NCBI GenBank assembly: GCA_002436105.1
Contig: DIXU01000017.1
Coordinates: 26,015 to 90,014, forward strand
DNA: 64,000 bases
Origin: Candidatus Aminicenantes bacterium UBA6072
GTDB lineage: Bacteria > Acidobacteriota > Aminicenantia > UBA2199
Direction of reading: 5' to 3'
Shown: in pieces, positions 8,424-40,899 of the stretch
Numbering within the stretch: position 1 is the stretch's first letter
How the letters are laid out: the number at the start of each line of letters is the position of its first letter
Made by a program: the position numbers and the translations under genes
The notes under the pieces: generated by a model
The model's input: the letters and a program-made list of their open reading frames with translations, nothing else
Database searches by the model: none
What the model was told of the DNA's origin: nothing

Positions 8424-8496
8424 TGGAGACCGGAGGCCGGAGACCGCAGACCGGAAGATGAAGGAAATCCAAAAAAGCTTGAGTCGTTAGGAGGCA

Positions 8497-9181: not shown

Positions 9182-9912
<731 letters not shown>

Positions 9913-12704: not shown

Positions 12705-13346
12705 TCAGAAGGAGATGCCGGCGCAGAGGAAGGTCTTGAACAGGTGGTAGCGCGCCTTGGGATCGTCGTTGCGCTCGTGGTTGCTGAAGGGCATGAAGAA
12801 GTGGAGCCCCAGGCTGGCGTCGACGGCGCGCAAATATTTCTTGAATTCCTGCAGCCGCAGGCGGGCGGTCGCGTACAGCCCGTATTGCACGCGGTGCAGG
12901 ATGCTGGCCTTCTCGACTTCCTCCTTGTACACGCCCGAGACGTGGGTATAGCGGTTGCTCAGAAAGAGATAGAAGAAGGGGCCGGCCGAAAAATCAAGGG
13001 CAAAGGCCAGCGACTGCCTGGGCAGCGACAGGGGAATCGTCAGCACCTTGCCGACGCCCATGCCCAGGGTGGTTTTTTTCGTGTCCCAAATCCCGTTCTC
13101 GATCGCCAGCCCCTTCCCCGAGATGATGTTGCCGAAGACGAGGAACTCGTGGCGGTGGGGATGGAACGAGGAGAGGACCAGCAGCGTGTCGCGGAAAGAG
13201 GGCTGCGGCTCCTTGTTCCAGATATCGCCGCTGGTAAAGACCGTGAGGCGCTCGCTGGAAAGGAACGAGAGGGAAAGGCCCAGGTCGGCGAACAGCGAGG
13301 CGGCCAGACCCAGCCCCAGGAACAGAAAGACGGTTTTCTTGCTCAT
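12705..13346 (-). CDS. small outer-membrane beta-barrel-like protein (hypothetical)
   Basis: Signal peptide MSKKTVFLFLGLGLAASLFA. Alternating amphipathic strands. C-terminal aromatic residue (…GISF). The ORF track's longer N-terminus is an extension. Confidence 0.5.
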   Translation of the reverse strand: MSKKTVFLFLGLGLAASLFADLGLSLSFLSSERLTVFTSGDIWNKEPQPSFRDTLLVLSSFHPHRHEFLVFGNIISGKGLAIENGIWDTKKTTLGMGVGKVLTIPLSLPRQSLAFALDFSAGPFFYLFLSNRYTHVSGVYKEEVEKASILHRVQYGLYATARLRLQEFKKYLRAVDASLGLHFFMPFSNHERNDDPKARYHLFKTFLCAGISF

Positions 13347-13362
13347 CGTTCTCTCCTTTGCC

Positions 13363-22258: not shown

Positions 22259-22288
22259 TTAACCCTTTGGCCGCCGGGGCCGTATTAT
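22259..22288 (+). promoter_or_regulatory. possible promoter of the tricorn-like gene (TTAACC-18-TATTAT)
   Basis: Weak -35, good -10, 43 nt upstream of ATG 22332. Confidence 0.3.
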
Positions 22289-22331
22289 GGACAATGGCTC
22301 CGAAAACCACATCACTTCTTGGAGGACACCC

Positions 22332-25300
22332 ATGAGACCATCCATCAACAAGGCCCTGAGATCATTCTGCGCTGCGTTCCTTTTCGCCTGGATCCTGGGG
22401 GCGCTGCCGCTCCCGGCGCAGGACCAGCCCCTGTGGCTGCGTTACCCGGCGATCTCCCCCGACGGTTCCAGCATTCTCTTCTGCTACCAGGGCGACATCT
22501 ACAAGGTGCCCGCCGCCGGCGGCCAGGCCGTGCCCCTGACCATCGGCGAATCCCACGAGTTCGCCCCGGTCTGGAGCCACGACGGCCGAACCATCGCCTT
22601 CGCCTCCGACCGCCACGGCAGCTTCGACGTCTTCGTCGTTTCCGCCGCCGGCGGCGAAGCCCGGCGCCTGACCTTTCATTCGCGCAACGATATCCCCAGC
22701 GGCTTCAGCGCCGACGACCGGAGCGTCCTTTTCAACCAGGTGCGCAAGGACCTGGCCAGCGACGCCCAGTTCCCGACCCCGGCCCTGCCGGAGCTCTACA
22801 GCGTCCCGGTGCAGGGCGGCGAGATCGCGCTGGTCCTGACCCACGCGGCGATCGCGGCCAAGGTCAGCCCGGACGGCAACAGGATCATCTACCACGACCA
22901 GAAGGGCTACGAAAGCGACTGGCGCAAGCATCACACATCCGCCGTGACCCGCGACATCTGGGTCCATGACCTGAAGGCCAACAAGTATACCCGACTCACC
23001 TCGTTCAATGGCGAGGACCGCAATCCCGTGTTCGCCGCCAACGGCGACGATTTCTACTACCTGAGCGAGCAGAGCGGATCGTTCAACATCCGCAGGAGCT
23101 CGCTGAGCAAGCCGGCGGAATCCCTCGCCCTGACCCACTTCACGAAAAATCCCGTCCGCTTCCTGAGCCGCGCCGATACCGGCCGCCTCTGCTTCGGGTA
23201 TGACGGCGAGATCTACACCCTCGATGCCGGGGCCATGCCGCACCGGGTCGACGTGCGCATCGCGCAGGACGGCCGGCAGGTCCTGGCCAAGCCCGTTCCG
23301 GTCGCCGGCGGCATCACGCAGATGCGCCTTTCGCCCAACGGCAAGGAGATCGCCTACGTCTTCCGCGGCGAGATCTTCGTCGGCAGCGTCGAGGGCGGCG
23401 TCGGCAAGCGCATCACCCATACTCCCGGGCAGGAGCGCAGCGTGAGCTTCAGCCCCGACGGCCGCAGCCTGGTCTACGCGGCCGAGCGCGACAACAACTG
23501 GAACGTTTACACCACCTCGATCGCGCGCAAGGAAGAGCCGTACTTTTACGCCGCCACCCTCCTCAAGGAGGAGCCGCTGGTGGCGACCGCGGCCGAGGAG
23601 TTCCAGCCCGAGTTCTCGCCCGATGGCAAGGAGGTGGCCTACATCGAGGACCGGGTCGTGCTCAGGGTGATCAACCTGGCCTCGCGGCAGACGCGGACGA
23701 TCCTGCCCGCCGAGCACAACTATTCCTATGCCGACGGCGACCAGGACTATGCCTGGAGCCCCGACGGCAAGTGGTTCCTGGTGCAGTTCGGCTACGTCCG
23801 CCTGTTCACCGCCCAGGTCGGGCTGGTCGCCAGCGACGGCAAGGGACAGGTCGTCAACCTGACCCGGAGCGGCTTTGACAGCATCGGCGCCCGCTGGGGC
23901 ATGGACGGCGCCATGATGTTCTACGGCTCCACGCGCGACGGCGCGGCCAATGTTTCCGGCTCGCCGGTGACCTACGACATCTACGGCATGTTCTTTACCC
24001 GCGAGGCCCATGACCGCTTCCTGCTCTCCAAGCCCGATTTCGCCCTGCTGAAGGAACAGGAGGACAAGGTCGCGAAGGACAAGGAGAAAGCCGGGGACAA
24101 AAAGGCGGCGACCGCCCGGGACGAGCCGAAGAAGGACATCGTCATCGAGCTGGCGGGCCTGGACCAGCGCAAGGTCCGGTTCACCGTCCGTTCCGCCGAT
24201 ATCGCCGGCGCCGCGCTCAGCCGGGACGGAGAGAAGCTCTTCTACCTGGCCCGGTTCGAGAAGGGCTACGACCTGTGGCAGGCCGAGCTGCGTGCGAAAG
24301 AGACTAAGCTTTTGACCAAGCTCAACGCCGAGCGGGCGGCCATGGAACTTAGCGCCGACGGCAAGGCCCTGTTCGTGCTGGCCGAAGGCAGGGTCAGCAA
24401 GATCGACCCCGAGAGCGGCAAGGCCGAGCCCGTCGCCATCGGCAATGAAATGTTCCTCGATGCCGGCGCCGAAAAGGCCTACATGTTCGATCACATGTGG
24501 CGGCAGATCCGGCAGAAGTTCCTGGTCGCCGACCTCTACGGCGCCGACTGGGATTTCTACCATGCGACCTATCGCAAGTTCCTCCCCTTCATCAACAACA
24601 ACTACGACTATGCCGAGATGGTCAGCGAGATGCTCGGAGAGCTGAACGCCTCACACACCGGATGCTACTACTCCCCGCCGCGCGCGCCCGAGGCCGATGC
24701 CACCGCCTCCCTGGGATTTTTCCGCGACTACGTCCACGCGAGCCCGGGCATCCGCATCGCGGAGATCCTGCCCGGCGGCCCGCTCGACAAGGCCGCCCTG
24801 CGCATCCGCGCCGGCCACGTGATCGAGAAGATCGACGGCGCGGCCCTGGACGGCAGCTTTGACCACGACCGGCTGTTGAACCGCAAGGCCGGCCAGCTCA
24901 CCCTGCTCTCGGTGTTCGATCCGGCCGCGAAGCAGCGCTGGGAAGAGACGGTCAAGCCCATTGCCCTGAACGAGGAGGCGCCGCTGGTGTACCGCCGCTG
25001 GGTGCGCGCCCGCCGCGCCGAAGTCGAGCGTCTCTCCGGCGGCCGCATCGGCTACGTCCACGTGCGCGGCATGAACGACGCCAGCATGCGCACTGTGATC
25101 GAGGAGGTGCTCGGCCTGAGCATCGACAAGGAAGCACTGATCGTCGACACGCGCTTCAACGGCGGCGGCAACCTCCATGACCAGCTGGCCGACTTCCTCG
25201 CCGGCAGGAAGGTCTTCGACATCGTCCCCCGCGGCCAGCTCGTCGGCTACGAACCCTACGACAAGTGGATCAAGCCCTCCATCGTCGTGATGGGAGAGGG

Positions 25301-25595
25301 CAATTACTCCGACGCCCACCTGTTCCCGGTGGAATACAAGATCCGCGGCATCGGCAAGACGCTGGGAATGCCCGTGCCCGGCACGGGGACGTTCGTCTGG
25401 TGGGAACAGCAGATCGACCCGACCCTGCGCTTCGGCATCCCCCAGGGCGGCTGGCGCACCCCGGAGGGTATACTCTGCGAGAACAACCAGCTCGAGCCCG
25501 ATATCCCGGTCAGGAACGATCCCGACGTCCTGGCGCTCGGGCGCGACCAACAGATCGAGGCGGCAGTAGCAGAGCTGTTGAAAGAAAAGAAGTGA
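22332..25595 (+). CDS. tricorn-protease homolog (TolB-like beta-propellers, PDZ, S41 C-terminal peptidase)
   Basis: ~1090 aa. Signal peptide. Repeated PD40/WD-like blades (SPDG…, IAF/YxS). C-terminal S41-like catalytic region. GGAGG RBS before ATG at 22332. Confidence 0.65.
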   Translation: MRPSINKALRSFCAAFLFAWILGALPLPAQDQPLWLRYPAISPDGSSILFCYQGDIYKVPAAGGQAVPLTIGESHEFAPVWSHDGRTIAFASDRHGSFDVFVVSAAGGEARRLTFHSRNDIPSGFSADDRSVLFNQVRKDLASDAQFPTPALPELYSVPVQGGEIALVLTHAAIAAKVSPDGNRIIYHDQKGYESDWRKHHTSAVTRDIWVHDLKANKYTRLTSFNGEDRNPVFAANGDDFYYLSEQSGSFNIRRSSLSKPAESLALTHFTKNPVRFLSRADTGRLCFGYDGEIYTLDAGAMPHRVDVRIAQDGRQVLAKPVPVAGGITQMRLSPNGKEIAYVFRGEIFVGSVEGGVGKRITHTPGQERSVSFSPDGRSLVYAAERDNNWNVYTTSIARKEEPYFYAATLLKEEPLVATAAEEFQPEFSPDGKEVAYIEDRVVLRVINLASRQTRTILPAEHNYSYADGDQDYAWSPDGKWFLVQFGYVRLFTAQVGLVASDGKGQVVNLTRSGFDSIGARWGMDGAMMFYGSTRDGAANVSGSPVTYDIYGMFFTREAHDRFLLSKPDFALLKEQEDKVAKDKEKAGDKKAATARDEPKKDIVIELAGLDQRKVRFTVRSADIAGAALSRDGEKLFYLARFEKGYDLWQAELRAKETKLLTKLNAERAAMELSADGKALFVLAEGRVSKIDPESGKAEPVAIGNEMFLDAGAEKAYMFDHMWRQIRQKFLVADLYGADWDFYHATYRKFLPFINNNYDYAEMVSEMLGELNASHTGCYYSPPRAPEADATASLGFFRDYVHASPGIRIAEILPGGPLDKAALRIRAGHVIEKIDGAALDGSFDHDRLLNRKAGQLTLLSVFDPAAKQRWEETVKPIALNEEAPLVYRRWVRARRAEVERLSGGRIGYVHVRGMNDASMRTVIEEVLGLSIDKEALIVDTRFNGGGNLHDQLADFLAGRKVFDIVPRGQLVGYEPYDKWIKPSIVVMGEGNYSDAHLFPVEYKIRGIGKTLGMPVPGTGTFVWWEQQIDPTLRFGIPQGGWRTPEGILCENNQLEPDIPVRNDPDVLALGRDQQIEAAVAELLKEKK

Positions 25596-25750: not shown

Positions 25751-26551
25751 ATGGAAAGAAAGCCCCTGGACGGCGGCATGCTATTCTTTGATGCCCGGGA
25801 CAATGAGGCGGCCGAATGGATGGGCGCCGCCGCCGAGGAGTCGCAGCGCCTGGCCCGCGAACTCTGGGGACTGGCGCCGCGGGGCGAGTTCCAGGTACAC
25901 GCCATGACCTCGTGGGCCGGATTTCTCTTCGCCGCCGCTCCCGGGGCTTGGCGCCCTTGGCTGCTCCTCACCCTGCCCCTGTGGGTCTCCCGGGTCACAA
26001 AGACCTGGAGAATGGCCGGAGGCTGGACGCAGCGCTTCGGCAGCAGGGTGGCGGTGGGTGTCAAGCCGCCGCGCCTGCTTCTGGCCGCCGACCGCTCCCT
26101 GGGCAAGCGGCTTTTCCTGTCCGAGCCCGACGTGCAGGGCAAGGTGCGGCAGATCACCTGGCACGAGACGGTCCATGCCTGCTCGCTCCATCACAAGCTC
26201 CCTGCCTGGCTGAATGAGGGGCTGGCCATGTTTGCCGTCGACCGGCTCGCAGGCATGCCGACCGTCCGTCCCGAGACCCTGTCCTGGATGACAACGGCCA
26301 ATGCCTCCGGCGGGCGCCGCTATCCCGCCCACTCCCATGACCGGGCCGGGACCTTTCTGCGTCTCTATGCCCAGGGATATTGGCGGGTACGTTTCCTGGA
26401 AGAGACGCGCCCGGGGCTGCTAAAGGAGCTCCTGTCGGCGAAATACGATTCAGACGAGTGGCTGCGGTCATTCGCCAAGGCCTGCGGGCTTGGTGATGGC
26501 GCCGGCTGGGCGGAAGTGGACCTGTCTGTGGCCAGGCACTTCGAGCAATAG
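25751..26551 (+). CDS. peptidase-MA-like zinc metalloprotease (HExxH…NEGLA)
   Basis: HETVH followed by LNEGLAMF, matching the gluzincin-like Peptidase_MA_2 motif pair. Confidence 0.5.
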   Translation: MERKPLDGGMLFFDARDNEAAEWMGAAAEESQRLARELWGLAPRGEFQVHAMTSWAGFLFAAAPGAWRPWLLLTLPLWVSRVTKTWRMAGGWTQRFGSRVAVGVKPPRLLLAADRSLGKRLFLSEPDVQGKVRQITWHETVHACSLHHKLPAWLNEGLAMFAVDRLAGMPTVRPETLSWMTTANASGGRRYPAHSHDRAGTFLRLYAQGYWRVRFLEETRPGLLKELLSAKYDSDEWLRSFAKACGLGDGAGWAEVDLSVARHFEQ

Positions 26552-26892: not shown

Positions 26893-27975
26893 CTATGGCA
26901 ACTGCAATTCCTGCCGCAACAGCCTATGCAGCCGCCGGCGCACGACGTTGAAATCCTCCTTCTTCACCCTCGGGTGGACGCGGTTGCTGAGGATGATCCA
27001 CTGGCGCTCGCCCTCCGCCTCCAGCCACAGCGACGTGCCGGTGAAGCCGTTGTGCCCCACGGCAGCGGGCGGAAGGGCCCGGCCCGCCGAAGTGCGCGGG
27101 GTGGAGTTCAGCTGGAAACCCAGGCTGCGGCCGGCGCCCAGGCCGGGAGTCAGGTCGCGCCAGAAGAGGGCGACGGTCTCCGCCTTGAGCAGGGTGGCGG
27201 CGGCGGGGAAGAATTCCCTCCCCAGCCGGAAGAGGTCGCGGGCGCTGGCAAAGAGTCCGGAGTTGCCCGCGCTGCCGCCGGCGTAGAAGGAATTGGCGTC
27301 GTGGGTCTCGCCGCGGATCAGTCCGCAGCGCCAGCGGAAGCGGGCCGCAGCCGCGCCATGACCGATGCGGCACAGCCCCTTCTCGTAGCGGTTGCCGACC
27401 TCGGTGGGCGCGCAGCGCGCCTGCAGCCCGGGCGGCGATCCCAGGAAGGCTGCCCGCAATCGCAACGGCTCGAAGATCACCCGCGAGGCCAGCTCCGGGA
27501 AACGGGCGCCGGATACCTTTTCCAACAGGTGCTTCAACAGGATGTAGCCGACGTCGGAATAGGCCACCCGCGTCCCCGGGGCGGCGGCGTCGCAGAGCGG
27601 CGCCGCCTGGGCCGGGTCGTCGAGGGGGCGGTAGAGGTAGAAAGGATGCCAGGGCCGCAGCCCGGCACTGTGGGTCAGAAGCTGCCCCAGGGTGACCGGC
27701 AGCTCCCGCAGCTCCGGCAGGAAGCGGCGCGCCTCGTCCTCCAGCCGCCATTGCCCCCTTTCCAGGAAATGGGCGGCCAGGAATGCGGTGACCAGGGGCT
27801 TGGTCAGCGAGGCCAGGTCGTAGAGGGTATCGCAATCCAGCGGCTCGGGGTCGGGCCAGGAGGCGCGCCTGCCGAAGCAGCGCTCGTACAGGACGCGCTC
27901 GCCGGCGGCGGCCAGGATGGACACGCCCGGAAAGGTCCTTCTCTCGATCTGGCTCCGGATGAAAGGCTCAAGCAT
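26893..27975 (-). CDS. serine hydrolase, beta-lactamase/PBP (class C-like) family
   Basis: S-x-x-K motif (SLTKP) and class-C-like downstream motifs. Overlaps the upstream gene stop by 8 nt (ATGCTTGA). Confidence 0.75.
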   Translation of the reverse strand: MLEPFIRSQIERRTFPGVSILAAAGERVLYERCFGRRASWPDPEPLDCDTLYDLASLTKPLVTAFLAAHFLERGQWRLEDEARRFLPELRELPVTLGQLLTHSAGLRPWHPFYLYRPLDDPAQAAPLCDAAAPGTRVAYSDVGYILLKHLLEKVSGARFPELASRVIFEPLRLRAAFLGSPPGLQARCAPTEVGNRYEKGLCRIGHGAAAARFRWRCGLIRGETHDANSFYAGGSAGNSGLFASARDLFRLGREFFPAAATLLKAETVALFWRDLTPGLGAGRSLGFQLNSTPRTSAGRALPPAAVGHNGFTGTSLWLEAEGERQWIILSNRVHPRVKKEDFNVVRRRLHRLLRQELQLP

Positions 27976-28885
27976 CCGCGTGGGCCTGCAGCGCGGCGGA
28001 GATGTCCAGGGCCAGCTCGAGCGCCGCCCGGCCGTCGCGGCCGCTGACGACGAAATCGCCCTCGCCGGCGACGGTGCGCCGGAAATTCTGCCACAGGCTG
28101 GCCAGAGGCTCGATGTCCTCGATGCGCGGGTATTCCTCGACGATCCGCCCCTCGCGCAGCTGGAACATCTTCACGCTGCGCTCCTTGTAATCCACGGAGA
28201 GATACAGGTTTTTCTGGAACAGGCGCAGCTTGCGCGTCTTTTCCTGGGAAACGCGGCTGGCGGTCACGTTGGCCACCAGGCCGGAATGGAACTCCAGGCG
28301 CACGTTGGCGATGTCGATCCGGCGCGAGATGATCGGCACGCCGCTGGCGCGGATCTCCCGCACTCCGGAGCGGTCCCACTGCAGGATGATGTCCAGGTCG
28401 TGGATCATCAGGTCCATGATGACGTCAATATCCAGCGAGCGCGGCGAAAAGGAGCCCAGGCGCTGCACCTCGATGAACAGGGGGCTGGCGACCAGCCGCC
28501 CGGCATACTCCACCGCCGGGTTGAAGCGCTCCAGGTGGCCCACGGCCAGCACCAGCCGGTTCGCCGCGGCCAGGGCGATCAGCTCATCGGCTTCGGCCAG
28601 CGTGCGGCTGATCGGCTTCTCGACCATGACGTGCTTGCCGTTCTCCAGGAAGAGGCGGCAAAGGGCGAAATGCTCCAGGGTCGGCGCCGCCACGATGACG
28701 GCATCCACAAGCGGCAGGGCCTGGCAGGGTTCCTGCAACAGGGGAATGCCGTAGGACATGGCGTTCTTCTCCAGGTTCGCCGCCAGGACGTCGACGGCGC
28801 AGGTCAGCTGCAATCCGGGAGATTTCGCCAGCACGCGCAAGTGATTGGCGCCCATGGCGCCGGTCCCGATTACGCCGATTCTCAT
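27968..28885 (-). CDS. Gfo/Idh/MocA-family NAD-dependent oxidoreductase (GnnA-like candidate)
   Basis: MRIGVIGTGAMGANH Rossmann N-terminus, EKP motif and the GFO_IDH_MocA C-terminal domain. Start overlaps the lpxI stop (ATGA). The 526-aa ORF-track form is a GC-rich extension. Confidence 0.8.
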   Translation of the reverse strand: MRIGVIGTGAMGANHLRVLAKSPGLQLTCAVDVLAANLEKNAMSYGIPLLQEPCQALPLVDAVIVAAPTLEHFALCRLFLENGKHVMVEKPISRTLAEADELIALAAANRLVLAVGHLERFNPAVEYAGRLVASPLFIEVQRLGSFSPRSLDIDVIMDLMIHDLDIILQWDRSGVREIRASGVPIISRRIDIANVRLEFHSGLVANVTASRVSQEKTRKLRLFQKNLYLSVDYKERSVKMFQLREGRIVEEYPRIEDIEPLASLWQNFRRTVAGEGDFVVSGRDGRAALELALDISAALQAHADA

Positions 28886-29691
28886 GTTCTCCCCATCAGG
28901 ATGATCTTGTTTCGCCGCGCCCGCTCGGCCAGCGAGGCGGGATCGAGCAGAAGCGTCCTGCCTGCTTCCAGCACGAACGCCGCCGCTCGGGCCGCTGCCA
29001 GCACGTCCAGGGTGCGCGGGCCCGCCACCGGCAGGTCGAAGCGCATGTCCTGGCCCGGTCGGCTGACCTTGGCCACGACCAGCCCGGGGCCGGCGATGGC
29101 CGCGGCCCGCTCGATGGCGCGGTCGGTTCCCTCCATGGCCTCCACGGCCACGACGGCCCTGTCCTTGACGCACACCGTCTGGCCGATATCCAGGCTGGCG
29201 AGGCCCCAGGCCTTCTGCCAGGCGAAATCGATGTCGCCGCGCAGGGCCCTGGTCAGCCGCAGGCGCGGGGTGTAGTTCCTGGCCGCCACCAGGTGCTCCT
29301 TGAGAAAGAAGGAAGAGTCGATGATCTCGATGCCTTCGCCGGCCAGGAAGTCGGCCAGCGCGGCCAGCAGCGACGTGGTGGTGCGGTCGCGGACGCCGGC
29401 CAGAAAACGCAGGAACTTGGCGTCGGCCGCCATGGCCGAGAAGACCGACGCGTGAGGGACGCGGCCGATCATCAGCGCCCGCTTCACGCCGCGGCTCCTG
29501 AAAAAGCGGATGAGCCCACCCAGGCGGCCGAGAGGGAACTCGGCCCATTCGTCGGCTTCAGCGGCCAGGTCGGGGGCGGCGGCGCCGCGGACGGAGGCGA
29601 CCACGGTATGCCAGCCCAGGCGCCGCGCCGCCCGGCAGGTCAGCAGCGGCAGGGGCGGCTCGCCGGCGATGATGCCGATCGTCTCAGCCAT
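28882..29691 (-). CDS. lpxI: UDP-2,3-diacylglucosamine hydrolase LpxI-like (DUF1009)
   Basis: 269 aa with an LpxI-like N-terminal domain. Position directly after lpxA. 8-nt overlap with the lpxA stop. Confidence 0.6.
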   Translation of the reverse strand: MAETIGIIAGEPPLPLLTCRAARRLGWHTVVASVRGAAAPDLAAEADEWAEFPLGRLGGLIRFFRSRGVKRALMIGRVPHASVFSAMAADAKFLRFLAGVRDRTTTSLLAALADFLAGEGIEIIDSSFFLKEHLVAARNYTPRLRLTRALRGDIDFAWQKAWGLASLDIGQTVCVKDRAVVAVEAMEGTDRAIERAAAIAGPGLVVAKVSRPGQDMRFDLPVAGPRTLDVLAAARAAAFVLEAGRTLLLDPASLAERARRNKIILMGRT

Positions 29692-30490
29692 CGGAGCGGA
29701 AATTCTTCAGGATGCCTCGCTTGGTTTTGCTGATGAATTCGGTGATCACCCGGGCTTCCTCGCTGTTGGCGTGCTGCTCGCCGATCCGGTGGACGGCCTG
29801 GGTGGTGTTCAGGTCGGAGTGGTAGAGGATGCGGTAGATGTCCTTGACGTTCTCGATGAAATCGCGGCTGAGCCCGTTGCGCATCATGCCGATGGCATTG
29901 GGACCGTACAGGCTGAACGATTCGCGGCTCTGGGCCACCTTGGCGAACGGCAGGACATCCTGGCAGACCACGCTGTAGCCGCCGATGTAGGCGTTGCGGC
30001 CGATGCGCACGAACTGGTGCACGGCGCAGAAGGCGCTGAGCACGACATAGTCGCCGATCTCGACATGGCCGGCCAGGGTGGCGCCGTTGCTGAGGATGAC
30101 GTGGCTGCCGAGCTGGCAGTCGTGGGCGACATGAGCGTAAGCCATGAGATAGTTGTCGTCGCCCAGGCGCGTGTGGCCCCCTCCCTTCGGCGTGCCGCGG
30201 TTGATGGTGGTGAACTCGCGGATGATGTTGCGGTCGCCGATGTGCACGAAGGTCTCCTCGCCCTTGAAGGTGATGTCCTGGGGGTCGGTCCCCAGCGAGG
30301 AAAAGGGGAAGATATGGCATTCGCGCCCGATGACGGTGTTGCGGTCGATGGTGGCATGGTGCTTGACCAGCGTGCGGTCGCCGATGCGCACGCCGGGCCC
30401 GATGACCGAATAGGCGTCGACCTGGACTTCCCGGCCGAGCTCGGCCTTGGCGCTGATGACGGCGGTGGGATGGATCAGCTTCTGGCTCAC
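29684..30490 (-). CDS. lpxA: UDP-N-acetylglucosamine O-acyltransferase LpxA
   Basis: 268 aa. Hexapeptide-repeat left-handed beta-helix. N-terminus [13 protein letters not shown]…. Confidence 0.85.
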   Translation of the reverse strand: MSQKLIHPTAVISAKAELGREVQVDAYSVIGPGVRIGDRTLVKHHATIDRNTVIGRECHIFPFSSLGTDPQDITFKGEETFVHIGDRNIIREFTTINRGTPKGGGHTRLGDDNYLMAYAHVAHDCQLGSHVILSNGATLAGHVEIGDYVVLSAFCAVHQFVRIGRNAYIGGYSVVCQDVLPFAKVAQSRESFSLYGPNAIGMMRNGLSRDFIENVKDIYRILYHSDLNTTQAVHRIGEQHANSEEARVITEFISKTKRGILKNFRSDG

Positions 30491-30921
30491 TGGGTCACCA
30501 TGCAGCTCATGGTCGCTTCGACCGCCAGCTGACCGTCCACCGAGGCCTTGCCCTCGATGACGGCGAACTTGCCCCGGTCGCGGACCACCAGCACCTCGAG
30601 GTCCAGCCGGTCTCCCGGCACGACGGGCCTCTTGAAGCGGGCTTTCTCGATGCCGGCAAAATAGGCATACACCTTCTGGCCGATGAAGCGCTGCATCAAC
30701 AGCACCGCCCCCAGCTGGGCCATGGCCTCGATGATCAGCACACCCGGCATGACCGGGTTGCCGGGAAAATGGCCCTGGAAAAAATCCTCGTTGCCGGTGA
30801 CGTTCTTGTAGCCCTGGATGGTCTTGCTCCCGTCGCAGGCGGTCACGCGGTCGACCAGCAGGAAGGGATAGCGATGGGGCAGGATCCGCTTGATGCCCTC
30901 GATATCCAGGGGCAGGTTCAT
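30487..30921 (-). CDS. fabZ: 3-hydroxyacyl-ACP dehydratase FabZ
   Basis: 144 aa. Hotdog-fold motif [19 protein letters not shown]. Confidence 0.9.
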
Positions 30922-31436
30922 TTCTTGGCGGCGGCGGTGGACTGGGCGTCGTAGGACTTGACCACCTTCTCGGTAAGGTCGATGGCGGGATCGAAGAAGG
31001 TAACGCCGGCCGTGTTCAGGTCGAGGACCAGGGAGAAGCCGTTCTCCTGGGCGACCTTCTCGATGATCGGCATCAGGTCTTTCTGGATCGCCTCGAATTC
31101 CTTCTGCTGGGCGGCCATGCTTTCCTTCTGGGCGTCCTCGGCGAAGCGCTTGATCTCGGTGCGCTTGTTGGCCAGGTCCTGGGTCTTGCGGTCGCGGGCC
31201 TCGGCGTTCAGCGCCGGGGAGAGGACTTCCTTCTCCAGGGCCTCGATCGCCTTCTGCAGCGACTCGTACTTCTTCTGCTTGGCGATGGTCAGCGCCTGCA
31301 GGCGGCCGATGGCTTCCTTGCCCTTGACCGAGTTCTGCAGGACGACCTGGGGATTGATGATGCCGATCTTGAATTCGGCGAAGGCGAACGCGCTCAGGGC
31401 CACCAGGGCCGCGATCAACAACAGGTGTTTTTTCAT
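30918..31436 (-). CDS. skp: periplasmic chaperone Skp (OmpH)
   Basis: 172 aa. Signal peptide. Lys/Glu/Gln-rich coiled-coil body. Sits between bamA and fabZ. Confidence 0.8.
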   Translation of the reverse strand: MKKHLLLIAALVALSAFAFAEFKIGIINPQVVLQNSVKGKEAIGRLQALTIAKQKKYESLQKAIEALEKEVLSPALNAEARDRKTQDLANKRTEIKRFAEDAQKESMAAQQKEFEAIQKDLMPIIEKVAQENGFSLVLDLNTAGVTFFDPAIDLTEKVVKSYDAQSTAAAKK

Positions 31437-31457
31437 GTTCTTCTCCTTATTGAAAAC

Positions 31458-33773
31458 TTAATAGAATGACGGACCGACGGCGAACTTGAAGACGAAGTGC
31501 GAATCGCCGACATCCAGCAGGCGCGGGTTGTAGGCGAAGATCAGGCGGAAGGGGACGTTGAGCATGGGCACGAAGACCTTCAGCTCCAGGCCGGTCGAGG
31601 TGTAGACGTCCTTCAGCCGGATCGGCGTACCGGAGTCGTAGGAGTTGCCCATGTCGTAGAAAAAGACGAAGGAGAACTGCTGGGTCAGGGGGATGGCGTA
31701 TTCCAGGTTGAAGAGGAACGACTTGGTCCCGCCCAGGACATTGCCGCTCTTGTCGCGCGGCCCGATGGTGTAGATGTCAAAGCCGCGCAGCGAGCGCTCG
31801 CCGCCCAGGAAATACTTCTCGTAGAAGGGGACCCGGCGGTTGGCGAACGGCGCCAGCCCCTCGTAGGCCAGGTGCAGGCCCAGCACGTGCCGCTTCCACA
31901 GGGGCTGGAAGCGGACGAACTCCAGCTTCAGCTTGTGCAGGTAGATGTCCCCGCCCAGGAAGCCGCCGGAATAGCGGTAGGTGGCCAGGACCTTGCTTCC
32001 CTGGGAGGGGAAGATCGGCGAGTCCACGGTGGAATAGTACAGGGTGGGCGAAAGGGCCGAGACGCGCCGCTTGCCCGCGCTGTAATAGTACATGTAATAG
32101 GAGCTGATGTACTGGTAGCTCTCGTTGACGTCGCTGATCTCGATGTCCTCCATGCTGTACACCAGCTGGCTGCCCCAGTAGGTCCAGAAGCGGGCCGAGC
32201 TGGAGAGGTTGAAGCCCTGCCCCTTGCGCGTGTACATGTAGGGATACTCGTAAGTGGTCTTGAAGACGTCGATGCCGAAATTGGCCGGCAGGTTGAACAG
32301 GTAGGGCTCGGTGAAGGCGAACTGGTAGTTCTTGGCGCGCGTGCCCTGCTGCAGGTTGAGGGTGAAGGCCTCGCCCATGCCCAGGAAGTTCTGGGTGGAA
32401 TAGCCGGCGGCGATGAACCAGCCCTCGTAGCCGCTGTAGCCCACGTTGAAGTTGATCATCTGCCGGTTCATCTCCTTGACCTCGGCGATGACGTTGATCT
32501 TCTGGGGGTCCTGGGGGTCGGCCTTGATCTCGGGCATCTTCTCCACGGTAACCAGGCCCAGCTGCTTCATGCGCTTGATCGAGTCCTCCAGGGCGTTGAT
32601 GTTCAGGCGCTTGCCCTCGCGCAGGAACCACTCGCGGCGGATGACATGGTCCTTGGTGAAGGTGTTGCCGACGAACTCGAGCTTGCCCAGGTAGACGACC
32701 TCGTTCTCCTGGATGTGGATGGTCAGGTCGGCGACGCGCCGTTCCGGGTCCAGGTTCTCGCTGGGCACGACCTGGGCGTAGAAGTAGCCGATGCCGCCGT
32801 AGAACTTCTGCATGTTCTCGATGAACTTGTTGCGCTTCTTGATGTTGTACACCTGGCCCTTCTTGAAGCCGACCAGGCTCTTGAGGAAGTCGGTGCGGAT
32901 GACCTTGTTGCCTTCGACGGCGATCTCGCCCACGCGGTAGCGCGGGCCGAGCTCCACCGGGATGCTGAGCCGCAGCATGTCCTGCCGGTGCCCGAGGATC
33001 GTTTTCCGCTCCATGGTGGCGAACTCCGGCGTGCCGACCTTGGCCTCCAGGTAGCCTTTCTGCTGCAGGCGCAGGCGGACCTCCTCGAGGTCTTCCTCGA
33101 TCTTCTCGCGGTTGTAGACGTCCTTGCCGGCGACGGCCGAGAGGATGGCGTGCACCTGGTTGCTCTTCAGGCCGCGGCGCAGGAAAGCCGGCGAGACCGA
33201 GCCGGGGGTGAGGCCGGGGAAAACCACCTTGGCGATGCGCGTCTTGTAGCCCGCGTCGGCGCGCACGGTCAGGGCGATCTGCCCGTTCTCCTCCTTCTTC
33301 TCGTCGATGGTCACGTCGGCCTGGTTGTAGCCCTTCTCCAGGAGCATGTCGGTGACGAGCTTCTTCACCTTGCGCACCTTGGACGGGCTGTAGTAAGAGA
33401 AGGGCTGCAGCAGGATGTTGCTGCCCTGCAGCTTCTCGTTGATGTCGCTCTCCTTGACCTTCTTGCTCAGCTTGTAGGTGACCGAGGAGATCAGCGGGTT
33501 CTCGGCCAGCACCAGGCGCACGATCTTGCCGGCGGCGCCGTTCTCCTCCTCGATGCGGATGTTCTCGAAGAAGCCGGTGGCCCAGAGCGACTGGAAATCC
33601 TCCTTCAGCTTCTGCGGGTCATAGACGCCGCCCTCGCGTGATTTCATGTAGAACTGGATGGTTTCGCGCGAGACCTTGCGATTGCCTTCGACCTGGATCT
33701 TTTCGATGACATCGGCGCACAGCCATTGGGCGCCGAGCAGCATCAGGACCAGCCACGGCATTTTTTTCAGCAT
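31458..33773 (-). CDS. bamA: outer membrane protein assembly factor BamA
   Basis: 771 aa. Signal peptide, five POTRA-like repeats, C-terminal 16-strand barrel ending …GPSFY/F. Confidence 0.9.
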   Translation of the reverse strand: MLKKMPWLVLMLLGAQWLCADVIEKIQVEGNRKVSRETIQFYMKSREGGVYDPQKLKEDFQSLWATGFFENIRIEEENGAAGKIVRLVLAENPLISSVTYKLSKKVKESDINEKLQGSNILLQPFSYYSPSKVRKVKKLVTDMLLEKGYNQADVTIDEKKEENGQIALTVRADAGYKTRIAKVVFPGLTPGSVSPAFLRRGLKSNQVHAILSAVAGKDVYNREKIEEDLEEVRLRLQQKGYLEAKVGTPEFATMERKTILGHRQDMLRLSIPVELGPRYRVGEIAVEGNKVIRTDFLKSLVGFKKGQVYNIKKRNKFIENMQKFYGGIGYFYAQVVPSENLDPERRVADLTIHIQENEVVYLGKLEFVGNTFTKDHVIRREWFLREGKRLNINALEDSIKRMKQLGLVTVEKMPEIKADPQDPQKINVIAEVKEMNRQMINFNVGYSGYEGWFIAAGYSTQNFLGMGEAFTLNLQQGTRAKNYQFAFTEPYLFNLPANFGIDVFKTTYEYPYMYTRKGQGFNLSSSARFWTYWGSQLVYSMEDIEISDVNESYQYISSYYMYYYSAGKRRVSALSPTLYYSTVDSPIFPSQGSKVLATYRYSGGFLGGDIYLHKLKLEFVRFQPLWKRHVLGLHLAYEGLAPFANRRVPFYEKYFLGGERSLRGFDIYTIGPRDKSGNVLGGTKSFLFNLEYAIPLTQQFSFVFFYDMGNSYDSGTPIRLKDVYTSTGLELKVFVPMLNVPFRLIFAYNPRLLDVGDSHFVFKFAVGPSFY

Positions 33774-33795
33774 GAAAACCTCGCAAAATTCGAGT

Positions 33796-33824
33796 TGAAT
33801 GGTATTTTATAGCACAAAACGCCA
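33796..33824 (-). promoter_or_regulatory. sigma70-like promoter of bamA (TTGTAA-17-TGcTATAAA, read on minus strand)
   Basis: -35/-10 hexamers with 17-nt spacer and TG-extended -10, ~35 nt upstream of the bamA ATG. Shares TTGTGCTATAAAA with the divergent fmdB promoter. Confidence 0.4.
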
Positions 33825-33891
33825 TAAATTACAATTCTCATATAAAGGATAAGACGTACGGGATGCATGAGAAAGTTTCAGCGTTTTTTTA

Positions 33892-33920
33892 TTGACAGCC
33901 GGAATCGATTGTGCTATAAA
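33892..33920 (+). promoter_or_regulatory. sigma70-like promoter of the fmdB-like gene (TTGACA-17-TGcTATAAA)
   Basis: Consensus -35 TTGACA (33892-33897), 17-nt spacer, extended -10 TGCTATAAA (ending 33920), ~30 nt before ATG 33951 with GGAGGAAG RBS. Confidence 0.5.
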
Positions 33921-33950
33921 AAAAATATCCATCACGCGGAGGAAGTGGCC

Positions 33951-34196
33951 ATGCCGATCTACGAATACAAATGCTCGAAATGCGGCAGAGTTTTCGAGTG
34001 TTTGCAGTCCGTTTCGGCCTCGCCGCGCCGCAAGTGCATCCACTGCCGGGGCCAGGCCGAAAAGATCGTTTCCCAGAGCTCGTTCCAGTTCAAGGGCTCG
34101 GGCTGGTACATCACCGATTACAAGAAGAAGGGCGCCCAGAGCGCCGCCCCGGCCAAGCCCGCGGAAAAAACCGATAAAAATGCCAAAGCCAGTTAG
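33951..34196 (+). CDS. FmdB-family zinc-ribbon protein
   Basis: MPIYEYKCSKCG…CIHCRG: two CxxC pairs on the typical FmdB N-terminus. The ORF-track start at 33867 lies upstream of the promoter, so 33951 is preferred. Confidence 0.7.
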   Translation: MPIYEYKCSKCGRVFECLQSVSASPRRKCIHCRGQAEKIVSQSSFQFKGSGWYITDYKKKGAQSAAPAKPAEKTDKNAKAS

Positions 34197-34656
34197 CCTT
34201 TCCATCTCTCCCCCCTTAATATAACCATAACCCCCACCCTACAAAAACACCCCCCCCGCTACATGGGGGGGGCCCGCCTTTTGTCATTGCCAGCAGATGG
34301 AATCGGTTTACGGTAGACGGTTTACGGTAGACGGGAAGAGAAGAGGCAATAGGAAGACTAAAATCCCAAATCACAAATTCCAAATCCCAAATAAATTCCA
34401 AACTCCAAATTCCAATTTCCAAAACGAAAACCAAGGCAAGTGTCAGTGACGGTGTCAGTAGGAGCCTTGGAATACGTTCTTGCTCTTTCGTTTCAACGTT
34501 TTAACGCTGCAACACTTCAACGATTTATGTTCCATTGACCCTTCAATTCATCACCGAGTTCGGGATCTTCGTTTGGGTCATTTGGTAATTGAAATTTGGT
34601 GCTTGTTTGGGATTTGGAATTTGGTGCTTGGAATTTAATTCTTCACATGTCACGCG
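34197..34656. repeat. repeat island E: composite with internal long inverted repeat
   Basis: Left part (34298-34462) is the reverse complement of island A 17421-17585 at roughly 80-85% by eye. Right part carries ATTTGGN arrays that are the inverse of the left AAATNCCA arrays. CGTCACG heptamers at 34650-34680. Confidence 0.8.
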
Positions 34657-35160
34657 TCACGCGTTACGCGTCACGACAGATCCTCCCTTTGCTGCCGCTG
34701 ACCGCAAACAGCCGGGCTCGTCTCCTGTCTTTTCCAGGATAATGGTCACCGGCCCGTCATTGACCGAGCGCACCTGCATCATGGCGCCGAATTCCCCTGC
34801 CGCGACCGGGACGACGTCCCGCAGCAGCGAGTTGAAGCGCTCATAGAGCTCCCGGGCGCGGCCGGGCTCCTCGGCATGGGTGAAGTCTGGACGCCTCCCC
34901 TTCCTGTTGCGCGCTGCCAGGGTGAACTGCGAGACCGAGAGTACGCCGCCTCGCACCTGCCGGACATCGAGGTTCATCCTCCCCGCTTCGTCGGCGAAGA
35001 CGCGCAGGTGCAGGACCTTGTCGGCCATGAAGGCGATCTCCCCCTCGCCGTCGCCCTTTTCAATGCCCACCAGCAGGAGCAATCCCCGGCCGATGCGGGC
35101 GATCTCGCGCCCCACGACGTCGACGCCGGCCTCCGCGACCCGCTGGATCACTACGCGCAT
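34657..35160 (-). CDS. dtd: D-aminoacyl-tRNA deacylase Dtd
   Basis: MRVVIQRV… start, SQFTLAA motif and MQVxxVNDGPVT. The C-terminus runs ~20 aa into the repeat island. Confidence 0.8.
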   Translation of the reverse strand: MRVVIQRVAEAGVDVVGREIARIGRGLLLLVGIEKGDGEGEIAFMADKVLHLRVFADEAGRMNLDVRQVRGGVLSVSQFTLAARNRKGRRPDFTHAEEPGRARELYERFNSLLRDVVPVAAGEFGAMMQVRSVNDGPVTIILEKTGDEPGCLRSAAAKGGSVVTRNA

Positions 35161-35164: not shown

Positions 35165-36004
35165 TCACCAGGGGCTGCCAAGCGGAGGCAGTTCCCTCTT
35201 CTCGCCGCCCGGGGCGGGAAGCGGATCGACTTTTCGCAGCAGCAGGGGGGAATCAAGGTCGATCCGCAGTCCCTCGCCTTCCCCTTCTTCCCGGGGCAGA
35301 AGGGCGGGGTTGCGCACCCAGCCGGAGCTTCGGCAGACCAGCCAGGCCCGGGAGTGGGCAAGATCCGGCTCCAGGTGCAGGCGGACGATCTCCAGCCGGC
35401 TCTCCTCCCACGAGACATGATTGATGAACCCCAGCAATGCCGGCAGCGGCGCCATGGCGACGACGCAAGCGGAACGGTTCGCGGGCAGGCCAGGCAGCGA
35501 CGGCTGACCGGTGAGCAGGCCACGCCAGTAATAACGTTTCGGGTCATGGGCCCGTGAAAAACCCTCCTGGATGGCGACGTACTGACTGCCGATCCAGCCG
35601 CCGAGGGGATCTCCCCGTCCCGGCCCGGCGCTTCCCAGCTCGGGCGCATGGATCTTGTTGCCGGACAGGAACCGGGCATGGGGGATGGCATCCAGCAGGA
35701 CCCGTTGCTGCAGGCTGGTCAGGGCCACCGCCCGCCAGCCGGCGTCATCGTCCAGCAGCGGCAGCGCCTGCCGGGTCCGGGATTCCATTTGCGCCAGGCG
35801 CTCCTCTTCTACCGCGTCGGGAAATTCGAGGTCAGCGGCCATGGCGCCGTGGTCCCTGATCTTGCGTTCCCAGTCGCCGCGCTCGCGGCGCAGGCGGCCC
35901 AGGTCCCTGACGGTCGGGTACCAATCCAGGACGACGAAGGCAGCTGCGACGGAAAGCGCCGCCAGGGCGCGAAACAGGGAGCCAGCCAGCTTCCCCCAGC
36001 TCAT
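35165..36004 (-). CDS. hypothetical membrane-anchored protein (N-terminal TM plus periplasmic domain; PilO/GspM-like topology)
   Basis: Single N-terminal TM (LFRALAALSVAAAFVVL) followed by a coiled-coil segment. ATGA overlap with the upstream gene. No family recognised. Confidence 0.4.
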   Translation of the reverse strand: MSWGKLAGSLFRALAALSVAAAFVVLDWYPTVRDLGRLRRERGDWERKIRDHGAMAADLEFPDAVEEERLAQMESRTRQALPLLDDDAGWRAVALTSLQQRVLLDAIPHARFLSGNKIHAPELGSAGPGRGDPLGGWIGSQYVAIQEGFSRAHDPKRYYWRGLLTGQPSLPGLPANRSACVVAMAPLPALLGFINHVSWEESRLEIVRLHLEPDLAHSRAWLVCRSSGWVRNPALLPREEGEGEGLRIDLDSPLLLRKVDPLPAPGGEKRELPPLGSPW

Positions 36005-36510
36005 GGCTGCAACTCCACCCGGCCGCGGACAACGAAGAGACGCGATTCGCTCCCGGGGGCAGGCGCCGGCGATGACGTGACATCGAAAGCCGCGGTCGCA
36101 TCCGCCAGCCGCCCCAGGAAAGCGTCGAGCTCGCGCCGGGCGACGGCATCCGCGCCGACCGCCAGCTCGAAGTTCATGTCGTGCAGCCCGGGATCGATGC
36201 GGACGGAGACCAGCCGCAGGGGTGCCGCGATGCCGTCCAGGCGGCGGACGAGATCGGCGGCGGCGTAGGAGGCGTCCATGGGATAGCCGAGGAAATAGCG
36301 GAGCTGGTAGAAGCGGGCGCGCCGGGCCTTGGTCGCGGCGATCGGTTGCTCGCGCACCAGCGCGAGGTAGCTCCGCTTCATCTCCGCGGCCTCCCTGGCG
36401 CGGCTGAACCGGACCGCGTGCAGCAGCAGGGAGATGACGGCCAGGAGCAGAAACAGGAGCAGCGGCCGGCGCCGAGGCCGGCGCAGCGGGCGATCGTCTG
36501 GCTCGTTCAT
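36001..36510 (-). CDS. hypothetical membrane-anchored protein (PilN/GspL-like topology)
   Basis: Arg-rich N-terminus, one TM (LLLFLLLAVISLLL), periplasmic ~110 aa. Coupled to the downstream gene. Confidence 0.4.
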   Translation of the reverse strand: MNEPDDRPLRRPRRRPLLLFLLLAVISLLLHAVRFSRAREAAEMKRSYLALVREQPIAATKARRARFYQLRYFLGYPMDASYAAADLVRRLDGIAAPLRLVSVRIDPGLHDMNFELAVGADAVARRELDAFLGRLADATAAFDVTSSPAPAPGSESRLFVVRGRVELQP

Positions 36511-39397: not shown

Positions 39398-40351
39398 TTA
39401 GGGGTGGCGGTTCAGGATCATGGCCGCCAGCAGCGGCACCAGGATCTCGTGCGGGCCGACGAAATAGAAGCCCTTGCCGCCGCGGGCCGTCGGCCGCCGG
39501 CAGACGTTCTCCTGGGGCCGGTAGAGGCGCTGGAAATCGAATACGGCGGTGTGGAATTGCTGCAGCGCGATCCCCTGGGCGGCGCAATAGGAGACGGCCT
39601 TGAGGAACACCTCGGGCAGGATGACCGCCGAGCCGATGTTGAGGAAGACGCCGCCGTCGCCCAGCTCGGAAACGATCGAGGCCAGCAGCTGGAAATCGCG
39701 CTCGGCCAGGGCGCCGCTGACCTCGCCGGAGAACATCGGGTGGTAATGGATGAAATCGGTGCCGATGGCCGGGTGGATGGTCACCGGGATGTTCAGCCGG
39801 TAGGCGTTGAAGAGCACGCTGTCCTCCAGGTGGGGGAACTGGGCCTGGATCAGGTAGTGCCCCACCGCCTCGCCGGCGCCCATGCCCTGCGACAGCCCGT
39901 CCTTCAGGGCCAGGTTCAGGAAGAGCCCCGTTTCTTCGGTATTGCCGTAGGTGCCCTGCAGCAGGTTGCCGTCGACGTCCTCGGAGGTGTGGCCGGCCAG
40001 GGCGAGCTCGAAGTCGTGGATCATCATGGCGCCGTTGCTGGCGATGGCCGACACCCAGCCGCGCTGCATCAGGTCGACGAGCAGCGGCCCCAGGCCCAGC
40101 TTGACCACGTGGGCGCCCATGGCCCAGATGATCGGCCGGTTCTTCTTCCTGGCCTGTCCCAGCAGGTCCACCAGCTCGCGCAGGTCGCGGGCGGCCAGGT
40201 AGGGGGGCAGGGAGTCCAGGAACTGGCGGAAGTCGGCGCCGGGCAGGCAGGGCCTGGGAAAATCCTTCAAATGGACCAGGGAATGCCGCTCCTTGATGGA
40301 GACGGTCTTCATCTTCCTGCGCTCCAGCGGCCGGTATTTCGGGTAGGGCAT
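39398..40351 (-). CDS. deoxyhypusine-synthase-like (DHS fold) protein, function unknown
   Basis: By-eye alignment of LMQRGWVSAIASNGAMMIHDFELAL to the DHS segment [25 protein letters not shown]. Catalytic-Lys context not confirmed. ATGA-coupled to pgsA. Confidence 0.35.
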   Translation of the reverse strand: MPYPKYRPLERRKMKTVSIKERHSLVHLKDFPRPCLPGADFRQFLDSLPPYLAARDLRELVDLLGQARKKNRPIIWAMGAHVVKLGLGPLLVDLMQRGWVSAIASNGAMMIHDFELALAGHTSEDVDGNLLQGTYGNTEETGLFLNLALKDGLSQGMGAGEAVGHYLIQAQFPHLEDSVLFNAYRLNIPVTIHPAIGTDFIHYHPMFSGEVSGALAERDFQLLASIVSELGDGGVFLNIGSAVILPEVFLKAVSYCAAQGIALQQFHTAVFDFQRLYRPQENVCRRPTARGGKGFYFVGPHEILVPLLAAMILNRHP

Positions 40352-40353
40352 GG

Positions 40354-40899
40354 CTATTTCCTGACGGGGCGGCTGAGGCGGATGATGTACTCGACGCCGC
40401 TGTAGACGGTCAGGAAAACGGCGATGTAGAGGATCGCATTCCCCAGCAGCCGCAAGTGGTCCGCGAACGGCAGCTTGCGGTGGATGATCAGGATGGCCAG
40501 GGCGATGATCTGGAAGGTGGTCTTGAGCTTGGCCGGCAGCGAGGCCGAGAAGGAGGCGTTATTGACCAGGTAGTAGAAGCGGAAGACCGAGATGAACAGC
40601 TCGCGCAGGATGATGATCGCCGCCACCCAGGTCGCCACCTCCTGCAGGTAGACCAGGGCGATCAGCGCCGCCGCGACCAGCAGCTTGTCGGCCAGGGGGT
40701 CGAGGAACTTGCCCAGGTCGCTGACCTGGTCGTACTTGCGGGCGACATAGCCGTCGATGGCATCGGTCACCGCGGCGATGACGAACACGGCGAAGGCGAT
40801 GATCTCCTTGTTCTCCATCTCGGTCAGCAGGATGACCAGCACGAAGGGGACCATGATGATGCGGATGATGGTGATGATGTTGGCCTTTGTCATATGCAC
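40354..40899 (-). CDS. pgsA: CDP-diacylglycerol--glycerol-3-phosphate 3-phosphatidyltransferase
   Basis: CDP-alcohol phosphatidyltransferase motif DAIDGYVARK…G…LDPLADK. 181 aa, 4-5 TM. Confidence 0.8.
   Translation of the reverse strand: MHMTKANIITIIRIIMVPFVLVILLTEMENKEIIAFAVFVIAAVTDAIDGYVARKYDQVSDLGKFLDPLADKLLVAAALIALVYLQEVATWVAAIIILRELFISVFRFYYLVNNASFSASLPAKLKTTFQIIALAILIIHRKLPFADHLRLLGNAILYIAVFLTVYSGVEYIIRLSRPVRK

Follow-up and report, generated by a model that had tools for sequence, protein, structure and literature searches.

A putative muropeptide hydrolase gene at the tail of an envelope and lipid A operon in Candidatus Aminicenantes

The tightly packed bamA-skp-lpxD-fabZ-lpxA-lpxB cluster of Escherichia coli is the closest described relative of the operon reported here, a set of seven genes in a 64,000-nucleotide (nt) stretch of DNA from Candidatus Aminicenantes bacterium UBA6072 (GenBank assembly GCA_002436105.1, contig DIXU01000017.1, positions 26,015 to 90,014; hereafter, the window). 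Three further systems bear on the genes that follow lpxA. The first is LpxI of Caulobacter crescentus (PDB structure 4ggm), which has both LpxI domains and is encoded after lpxA. The second is the protein of PDB entries 7bvj and 7bvk, which we take to be the GnnA of Acidithiobacillus ferrooxidans: a protein of Gfo/Idh/MocA fold encoded beside lpxA. The third comprises two proteins of the Beta-lactamase family PF00144, YfeW (PBP4B) of E. coli and AmiE (YbbE) of Bacillus subtilis, whose genes lie in N-acetylmuramic acid (MurNAc) catabolic operons: yfeW is the third gene of the murQ-murP-yfeW MurNAc operon (PMC5061867), while AmiE, a PF00144 protein (PMC10653849), is an exo-MurNAc-L-Ala amidase encoded beside nagZ and namZ (PMC8054146).

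The operon in the window is a lineage-specific variant of the E. coli-type cluster. It shares with that cluster its tight packing and the gene order bamA, skp, fabZ, lpxA, but lacks lpxD and lpxB, as a first-pass annotation of this DNA had noted. Indeed, neither of these genes, nor lpxC, lpxK or a DegT aminotransferase gene, was found anywhere in the window by Pfam scans of its ~45 predicted genes. In the place that lpxB occupies after lpxA in E. coli stand lpxI, a gnnA orthologue and a gene for a PBP4B-like protein. Relative to the classic arrangement, this site has gained lpxI and gnnA, and its lpxD and lpxB have either moved elsewhere or disappeared. We propose, with a probability of roughly 0.6, that one unit beginning after a dtd terminator combines six envelope and lipid A genes with a gene for a cytoplasmic muropeptide hydrolase of the PBP4B/AmiE family, which takes no step in lipid A synthesis. 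Read in this way, the operon gives no reason to infer new lipid A chemistry from its unusual gene.

A seven-gene envelope unit

Seven consecutive minus-strand open reading frames (ORFs) fill positions 26893-33773, with the limits that the first-pass annotation had given them and with families confirmed by Pfam and NCBIfam. The unit and its upstream surroundings are as follows (aa, amino acids):

34657-35127: dtd gene, upstream of bamA
34249..34273, minus strand: terminator-like hairpin after dtd (9 pairs, 8 of them G-C, then a T run)
33774..33900, minus strand: A+T-rich leader upstream of bamA, presumed promoter region
31458..33773, minus strand: bamA (771 aa; five POTRA domains and an Omp85 barrel)
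30918..31436, minus strand: skp/ompH chaperone gene (172 aa)
30487..30921, minus strand: fabZ (144 aa)
29684..30490, minus strand: lpxA (268 aa; GTG start)
28882..29691, minus strand: lpxI-family gene, putative UDP-2,3-diacylglucosamine hydrolase (269 aa)
27968..28885, minus strand: gnnA orthologue, putative UDP-GlcNAc 3-dehydrogenase (305 aa)
26893..27975, minus strand: gene for a PBP4B/AmiE-like beta-lactamase-fold serine hydrolase (360 aa)

Every junction had been described as an overlap of 4-8 nt. This holds for five of the six: skp and fabZ overlap by the 4 nt ATGA, fabZ and lpxA by GTGA, lpxA and lpxI by 8 nt (ATGGCTGA), lpxI and the oxidoreductase gene by ATGA, and the oxidoreductase and hydrolase genes by 8 nt (ATGCTTGA). 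It does not hold for bamA and skp, where the sequence reads TAA, a 21-nt spacer with AAGGAG, and then ATG. The oxidoreductase start is the ATG at 28885, not that of the longer ORF in the automatic ORF list. Overlap as such is not special in this genome, since it is seen in 12 of the 37 same-strand neighbour pairs of the window; the operon's five in a row form the longest run. The codon-position G+C pattern of the seven ORFs is the same as that of the remainder of the window (65% G+C).

The hairpin and T run after dtd mark the upstream limit of the transcription unit. A consensus scan of the leader gave no sigma-70 match on the minus strand, and its role as the promoter region is presumed. We infer that the genes from bamA to the hydrolase gene are co-transcribed as one unit. 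On the opposite strand, a small Zn-ribbon (FmdB-type) gene at 33867-34196 (+) lies just upstream of bamA, a position kept in two relatives (L001, L005). Convergent with the operon end is a gene at 22287-25595 (+) whose 1102-aa product is a tricorn-like protease (PD40 repeats, Tricorn_C1, Peptidase_S41).

The nearest proteins come from Candidatus Aminicenantes assemblies, the closest genome being UBA2190 (GCA_002335385.1). All seven genes recur in this order on its contig DCVK01000054, at ~90% protein identity, and the tricorn-like protease gene is in the same place. For a wider comparison, a motif-based scan covered GTDB at one genome per species and gave at least 589 relatives of the hydrolase, from which 80 loci were kept; their contexts were read from profile searches of six-frame ORFs, and taxonomic labels of metagenome-assembled genomes (MAGs) are given as deposited. 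Relatives whose hydrolase is no more than 45-49% identical still show the order bamA-skp-fabZ-lpxA-(lpxI)-oxidoreductase-hydrolase. lpxI lies between lpxA and gnnA in the window and in L001, L005 and L014, while in L004, L006, L008, L009 and L091-L093 gnnA directly follows lpxA. Three loci of other Acidobacteriota (L052, L053 and L068) have the whole operon, lpxD included at the position known from E. coli, and still end in gnnA followed by the hydrolase gene (bla). In L004 (CP070627.1), a set resembling a diversity-generating retroelement (RVT_1 reverse transcriptase, bAvd and two NACHT/FGE-sulfatase proteins; positions 1-7094) lies immediately upstream of a short, 324-aa bamA with Omp85 only.

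The terminal hydrolase and its relatives

The last product of the operon belongs to the Pfam Beta-lactamase family (PF00144, E = 2e-49) and carries the motifs S56-L-T-K59 (SxxK), Y139-S-D and H308-N-G310, which are invariant across its homologues. In BLASTP it aligns over its full length (residues 2-337) with E. coli YfeW/PBP4B, at 26% identity (E = 3e-29). With the PBP4B/AmiE family it shares the PF00144 fold and the signatures SxxK, YSD, H-x-G-(F/W)-T-G-T, G-x-x-HD and GG-x-x-G-x-x-GLF. Judged by its sequence, the hydrolase is a distant relative of PBP4B and, by the NCBI criterion, not an orthologue. It fails the class C beta-lactamase model (NF033085; 38.7 bits against a cut-off of 415).

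The protein leaves no room for a signal peptide, since (i) the first possible start of its ORF is the ATG at 27975, with no upstream extension, and (ii) residues 1-24 lie within the folded domain of an AlphaFold model, at a predicted local distance difference test (pLDDT) score of 97 (93.6 for the model as a whole). Its residue 2 aligns with residue 43 of YfeW, which has ~42 extra N-terminal residues. AmiE is described as secreted and YfeW has an N-terminal export region, whereas the hydrolase has no such region and is predicted to be cytoplasmic. PBP4B and AmiE also differ from it in setting, their genes standing in MurNAc catabolic operons and the hydrolase gene in a lipid A operon beside gnnA.

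In the sister clade of the acidobacterial homologues, relatives of the hydrolase gene repeatedly stand beside genes of cell-wall recycling. The arrangement bla-namZ-anmK occurs in 13 loci (11 labelled Poribacteria and two 'uncultured bacterium') and ldcA-bla in five. In three more, bla is found with murQ, twice together with anmK; these include MAGs labelled Acidimicrobiia and Firmicutes, and the murQ-adjacent homologue in the Acidimicrobiia-labelled MAG is one of those that also have anmK. Pfam bore out the identity of the NamZ, AnmK and LdcA neighbours, and no Gfo/Idh/MocA gene lies beside any recycling-linked homologue in the 80 loci. Furthermore, three loci encode a PBP4B-like domain and a NamZ exo-muramidase domain in a single ORF of 830-920 aa:

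L060, 9509-12268: Bla-NamZ fusion, MAG labelled Proteobacteria
L083, 283-2775: Bla-NamZ fusion, MAG labelled Planctomycetaceae
L080, 1088-3676, minus strand: Bla-NamZ fusion, MAG labelled Candidatus Acidiferrales

A second context is that of the window. In 35 of the 80 loci gnnA is directly upstream of the bla homologue, usually at a spacing of no more than ~12 nt or overlapping it. All but one of these 35 are labelled Aminicenantes or other Acidobacteriota, from several acidobacterial classes; L008, whose 'Clostridia' label is doubtful, carries bamA-skp-fabZ-lpxA and clusters with Aminicenantes. The 35 include the three loci with lpxD in the operon (L052, L053 and L068). Many of the gnnA-bla loci are from Pyrinomonadaceae and have no lpx gene nearby. 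Conversely, bla is kept in Acidobacteriota loci without gnnA (L036-L043, Thermoanaerobaculia), where its neighbours are TonB-like and SpoIID/SPOR genes or else MltG, which precedes bla in one locus. In Blastocatellia and Pyrinomonadaceae, a gene for a large SpoIID or SpoIID+SPOR protein lies downstream of the hydrolase gene on the same strand, from adjacent to ~9 kb away; this arrangement is seen in L024, L026, L036, L039, L043, L050 and ~15 further loci, in several of them with a TonB_2-domain gene in between. One apparent GnnA-hydrolase fusion (P0067, 587 aa; L003, 10001-11764) is most likely a frameshift artefact, and bamA, skp and lpxI of the same contig are also fragmented.

The two contexts share one protein family. 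In a neighbour-joining tree the acidobacterial clade is sister to the recycling-linked clade, which agrees with taxonomy. About 50 residues are invariant among 60 Aminicenantes-dominated homologues (46-90% identical to the query), and a comparable core is kept across phyla, which argues for one specific substrate. Of the positions with a conservation of 90% or more among gnnA-linked sequences, nearly all are also conserved among the recycling-linked ones and in YfeW.

Together, the single active-site signature across contexts, the recycling links and fusions, the occurrence in monoderm-labelled MAGs and the independence from gnnA are most simply read as those of a muropeptide-processing relative of PBP4B and AmiE. 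The monoderm-labelled MAGs would lack lipid A, which weighs against a lipid A role for the family. The first-pass annotation had suggested an esterase that remodels lipid A or phosphatidylglycerol (PG-lipid), a proposal for which we find no support. It had also held that a signal peptide and clear DD-peptidase motifs would move the protein into peptidoglycan metabolism; the signal peptide is absent, and it is the YfeW homology, the recycling links, the monoderm-labelled MAGs and the persistence without gnnA that place the hydrolase there.

The substrates of the proposed enzyme would be products of peptidoglycan turnover, on which it would act as an amidase or peptidase with a Ser-Lys acyl-enzyme mechanism. 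Most likely it would, like AmiE, strip (anhydro)MurNAc-peptides of their stem peptide; trimming of the stem peptide is the alternative. Its place at the operon tail recurs through Acidobacteriota and would belong to an old envelope gene cluster, which in relatives goes on to a TonB-like gene and a gene for a peptidoglycan hydrolase of the SpoIID/SPOR kind. More broadly, the family is a widespread and uncharacterised one: cytoplasmic PBP4B/AmiE-like proteins, in the genomes of at least 589 GTDB species, that are linked or fused to NamZ, AnmK, MurQ or LdcA. It is a candidate for a non-AmpD route by which peptides are stripped from recycled muropeptides, and as such is of interest to the field of cell-wall recycling.

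The six envelope genes and the predicted lipid A

The products of the first six genes would act in the assembly of outer-membrane proteins and in the early, cytoplasmic part of lipid A synthesis; here, as for the hydrolase, we infer the enzymatic activities, and from them the lipid A chemistry. BamA scores 449.8 bits with TIGR03303 (cut-off 297), Skp belongs to the OmpH family in Pfam and NCBIfam, FabZ scores 191 bits with NF000582 (cut-off 113), and LpxA 335 bits with NF003657 (cut-off 226). FabZ would supply the acyl-acyl carrier protein chemistry, and LpxA would acylate position 3 of the UDP-sugar. Against the GlcNAc3N-specific LpxA of Leptospira (3hsq) the window LpxA scores 168 bits, a low rank in a ranking that mostly follows phylogeny.

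The LpxI assignment of the first-pass annotation stands. The protein has both Pfam domains (LpxI_N, E = 6e-29; LpxI_C, E = 2.4e-39), and its sole PDB matches are the C. crescentus LpxI structures 4ggm and 4j6e (63 bits to 4ggm). It falls below the NCBIfam equivalog NF047836 (90.5 bits against a cut-off of 400). As in C. crescentus, its gene follows lpxA; unlike there, the protein is divergent, no lpxB comes after it, and only some Aminicenantes operons have it. LpxI would cleave the UDP-diacyl sugar.

The sixth product has the nicotinamide adenine dinucleotide (NAD)-binding Rossmann domain of the Gfo/Idh/MocA family (PF01408, E = 3.2e-26, residues 1-117), and two comparisons bear out its proposed identity as GnnA. 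Firstly, its best match among all PDB sequences is 7bvj/7bvk at 167 bits, with the next Gfo/Idh/MocA structure at 57 bits; it is 35% identical to 7bvj over 300 aligned residues, and the two have in common the active-site block RSLDxDVxxDLMIHDLD, RSLDIDVIMDLMIHDLD, and a near-identical block, PRSLDIDVIMDLMIHDLD. Secondly, its best NCBIfam model is NF040723, the archaeal equivalog of uridine diphosphate N-acetylglucosamine (UDP-GlcNAc) 3-dehydrogenase, at 170 bits, which is below the cut-off of 450 of a model built for archaea. The inositol 2-dehydrogenase model iolG reaches 98 bits and the glycoside 3-dehydrogenase models 25 bits, and there is no bacterial GnnA model among the NCBIfam matches. 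The protein clusters with GnnA and not with the inositol or glucose-fructose dehydrogenases, which the first-pass annotation had named as the competing assignment. The 7bvj protein is named as the UDP-GlcNAc 3-dehydrogenase GnnA in a preprint (bioRxiv 10.1101/2024.11.05.622173). Identity to A. ferrooxidans GnnA is 33-42% for the gnnA products of other acidobacterial classes, in which the same motifs are kept. By sequence comparison, these copies and the window oxidoreductase are one orthologous family, and the oxidoreductase is an orthologue of GnnA and a putative UDP-GlcNAc 3-dehydrogenase.

The enzyme would oxidise the 3-OH of UDP-GlcNAc, and a GnnB aminotransferase encoded elsewhere would then make UDP-GlcNAc3N. 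Given a GnnA orthologue, lipid A of the 2,3-diamino-glucose (GlcN3N) type is a reasonable, if unproven, prediction: the lipid A of this organism is probably built at least partly on that sugar, and the prediction extends to Aminicenantes and to many other Acidobacteriota. No account of lipid A chemistry in Acidobacteria or Aminicenantes emerged from the literature searched. In known GlcN3N producers gnnA and gnnB are often unlinked (PMC5644692). No gene for GnnB, a DegT/ArnB-like aminotransferase, was found in the window, in agreement with the first-pass annotation, or in any of the 80 related loci up to a distance of 10 kb. Separately, at 51206-55158 (+), a PAP2 phosphatase gene overlaps a gene for a TPR-GGDEF diguanylate cyclase by 8 nt, with a serine/threonine kinase gene 1 nt after; the PAP2 protein could be a lipid phosphatase of the LpxE/LpxF type.

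Weighing the readings, and other features of the window

Several results weigh against the explanation proposed here. PBP4B is the best NCBIfam match of the hydrolase, but at 74.5 bits with NF002968 it is far from the cut-off of 385. A Foldseek search of the PDB with the hydrolase model returned EstG, the acyltransferase BmmI, family VIII esterases, ClbP, LovD, AmpC and R61, all at a template modelling (TM) score of ~0.75, and so gives no specific neighbour and does not separate the readings. The best structural matches, EstG of C. crescentus and the family VIII carboxylesterases, have only 16-22% sequence identity, and many PF00144 structures score like EstG, such that no specific functional lead emerges. 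None of namZ, anmK, murQ, ldcA, nagZ and ampG is found in the window or beside the hydrolase gene in any Aminicenantes locus. The two context groups differ systematically at G194/N195, G307, W317 and F271. For PBP4B itself, the activity cited in a passage of PMC5061867 is only a weak DD-carboxypeptidase one. GnnB was not found in the searched regions, and GlcN3N synthesis stays a prediction. Finally, the persistence of gnnA directly upstream in 35 loci is of a kind that usually signals functional coupling, and a recycling function leaves it unaccounted for; this deeply conserved pairing poses a small question that joins lipid A and peptidoglycan precursor metabolism.

The alternative that survives best, although we consider it unlikely, assigns the hydrolase to the lipid A pathway as a dedicated partner of GnnA and LpxA. 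Its activity might then be that of an esterase clearing ester-linked acyl chains misplaced on UDP-GlcNAc, of an amidase of 3-N-acyl-GlcNAc3N intermediates, or of an acyltransferase of the LovD type. Such a role would fit the translational coupling to gnnA by the 8-nt overlap, the recurrence of the gnnA-bla pair in several acidobacterial classes (also as a stand-alone unit), the esterases and the acyltransferases BmmI and LovD among the structural neighbours, and the handful of clade-specific residues; both proteins would recognise a C3-modified GlcNAc ring. However, members of this family with one and the same set of conserved residues have NamZ, AnmK, MurQ or LdcA as linked or fused partners and are present in monoderm-labelled MAGs, and bla persists in Acidobacteriota loci without gnnA. 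In addition, a passage of PMC8036547 citing Sweet et al. 2004 has A. ferrooxidans GnnA and GnnB suffice for the formation of UDP-GlcNAc3N. One variant, a LovD-like acyltransferase that replaces LpxD, is ruled out, because the hydrolase gene is carried by operons that keep lpxD (L052, L053 and L068) as well as by those that lack it.

A related and improbable view starts from recycling: gnnA and the PBP4B/AmiE-like gene would form a functional unit, the hydrolase having been recruited in Acidobacteriota from recycling to C3-modified UDP-GlcNAc derivatives. It would, for example, restrict lipid A to the GlcN3N-based form by proofreading or deacylating 3-acyl intermediates. If true, this would add an unrecognised step, or a quality control, to the Raetz pathway of Acidobacteriota.

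We think it quite improbable that the hydrolase has no envelope role, and is instead a generic cytoplasmic esterase, D-aminopeptidase or beta-lactam-binding protein whose position reflects inherited gene order. In its favour are the great functional diversity of PF00144, the lack of a specific match among the best solved relatives (esterases and Pab87-type peptidases) and a homologue tree that tracks taxonomy. Against this, envelope or peptidoglycan neighbours recur independently in several phyla, the three NamZ fusions are independent, and the invariant residues with their cross-phyla core point to one specific substrate.

Least probable of all, and very doubtful, is an amino-sugar salvage module in which the GnnA-like dehydrogenase, replacing NagZ, would cleave GlcNAc from GlcNAc-(anhydro)MurNAc-peptide by NAD-dependent C3 oxidation and GH4/GH109-style elimination before the hydrolase, as an AmiE-like amidase, removes the peptide, as in the NagZ-then-AmiE order of B. 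subtilis: the stand-alone gnnA-bla unit of Pyrinomonadaceae, the action of AmiE after NagZ with adjacent genes in B. subtilis (PMC8054146), and the glycoside 3-dehydrogenases within Gfo/Idh/MocA (weak NCBIfam matches) speak for it, but all acidobacterial copies keep the active-site block and the 33-42% identity to a biochemically defined GnnA, UDP-GlcNAc 3-dehydrogenase models score far ahead of glycoside 3-dehydrogenase ones (170 against 25 bits), the gene directly follows lpxA or lpxI in several classes, and recycling-linked homologues have no Gfo/Idh/MocA gene beside them.

The remainder of the window holds some further features. Five paralogues of a MacB/FtsX-type permease, of ~800 aa each and the first cut by the window edge, form a tandem expansion at 2-12540, with one ATP-binding cassette (ABC) ATPase gene within the array (9016-9912). 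A gene at 39398-40899 (-) has a weak resemblance to deoxyhypusine synthase (26 bits, below the cut-off) and lies 2 nt from a CDP-alcohol phosphatidyltransferase gene. Well-formed ORFs without a Pfam match occur at 12705-14478 (-), 35165-36510 (-) and 25751-26551 (+); of these, the ORF pair at 35165-36510 (-) is kept beside dtd in relatives.

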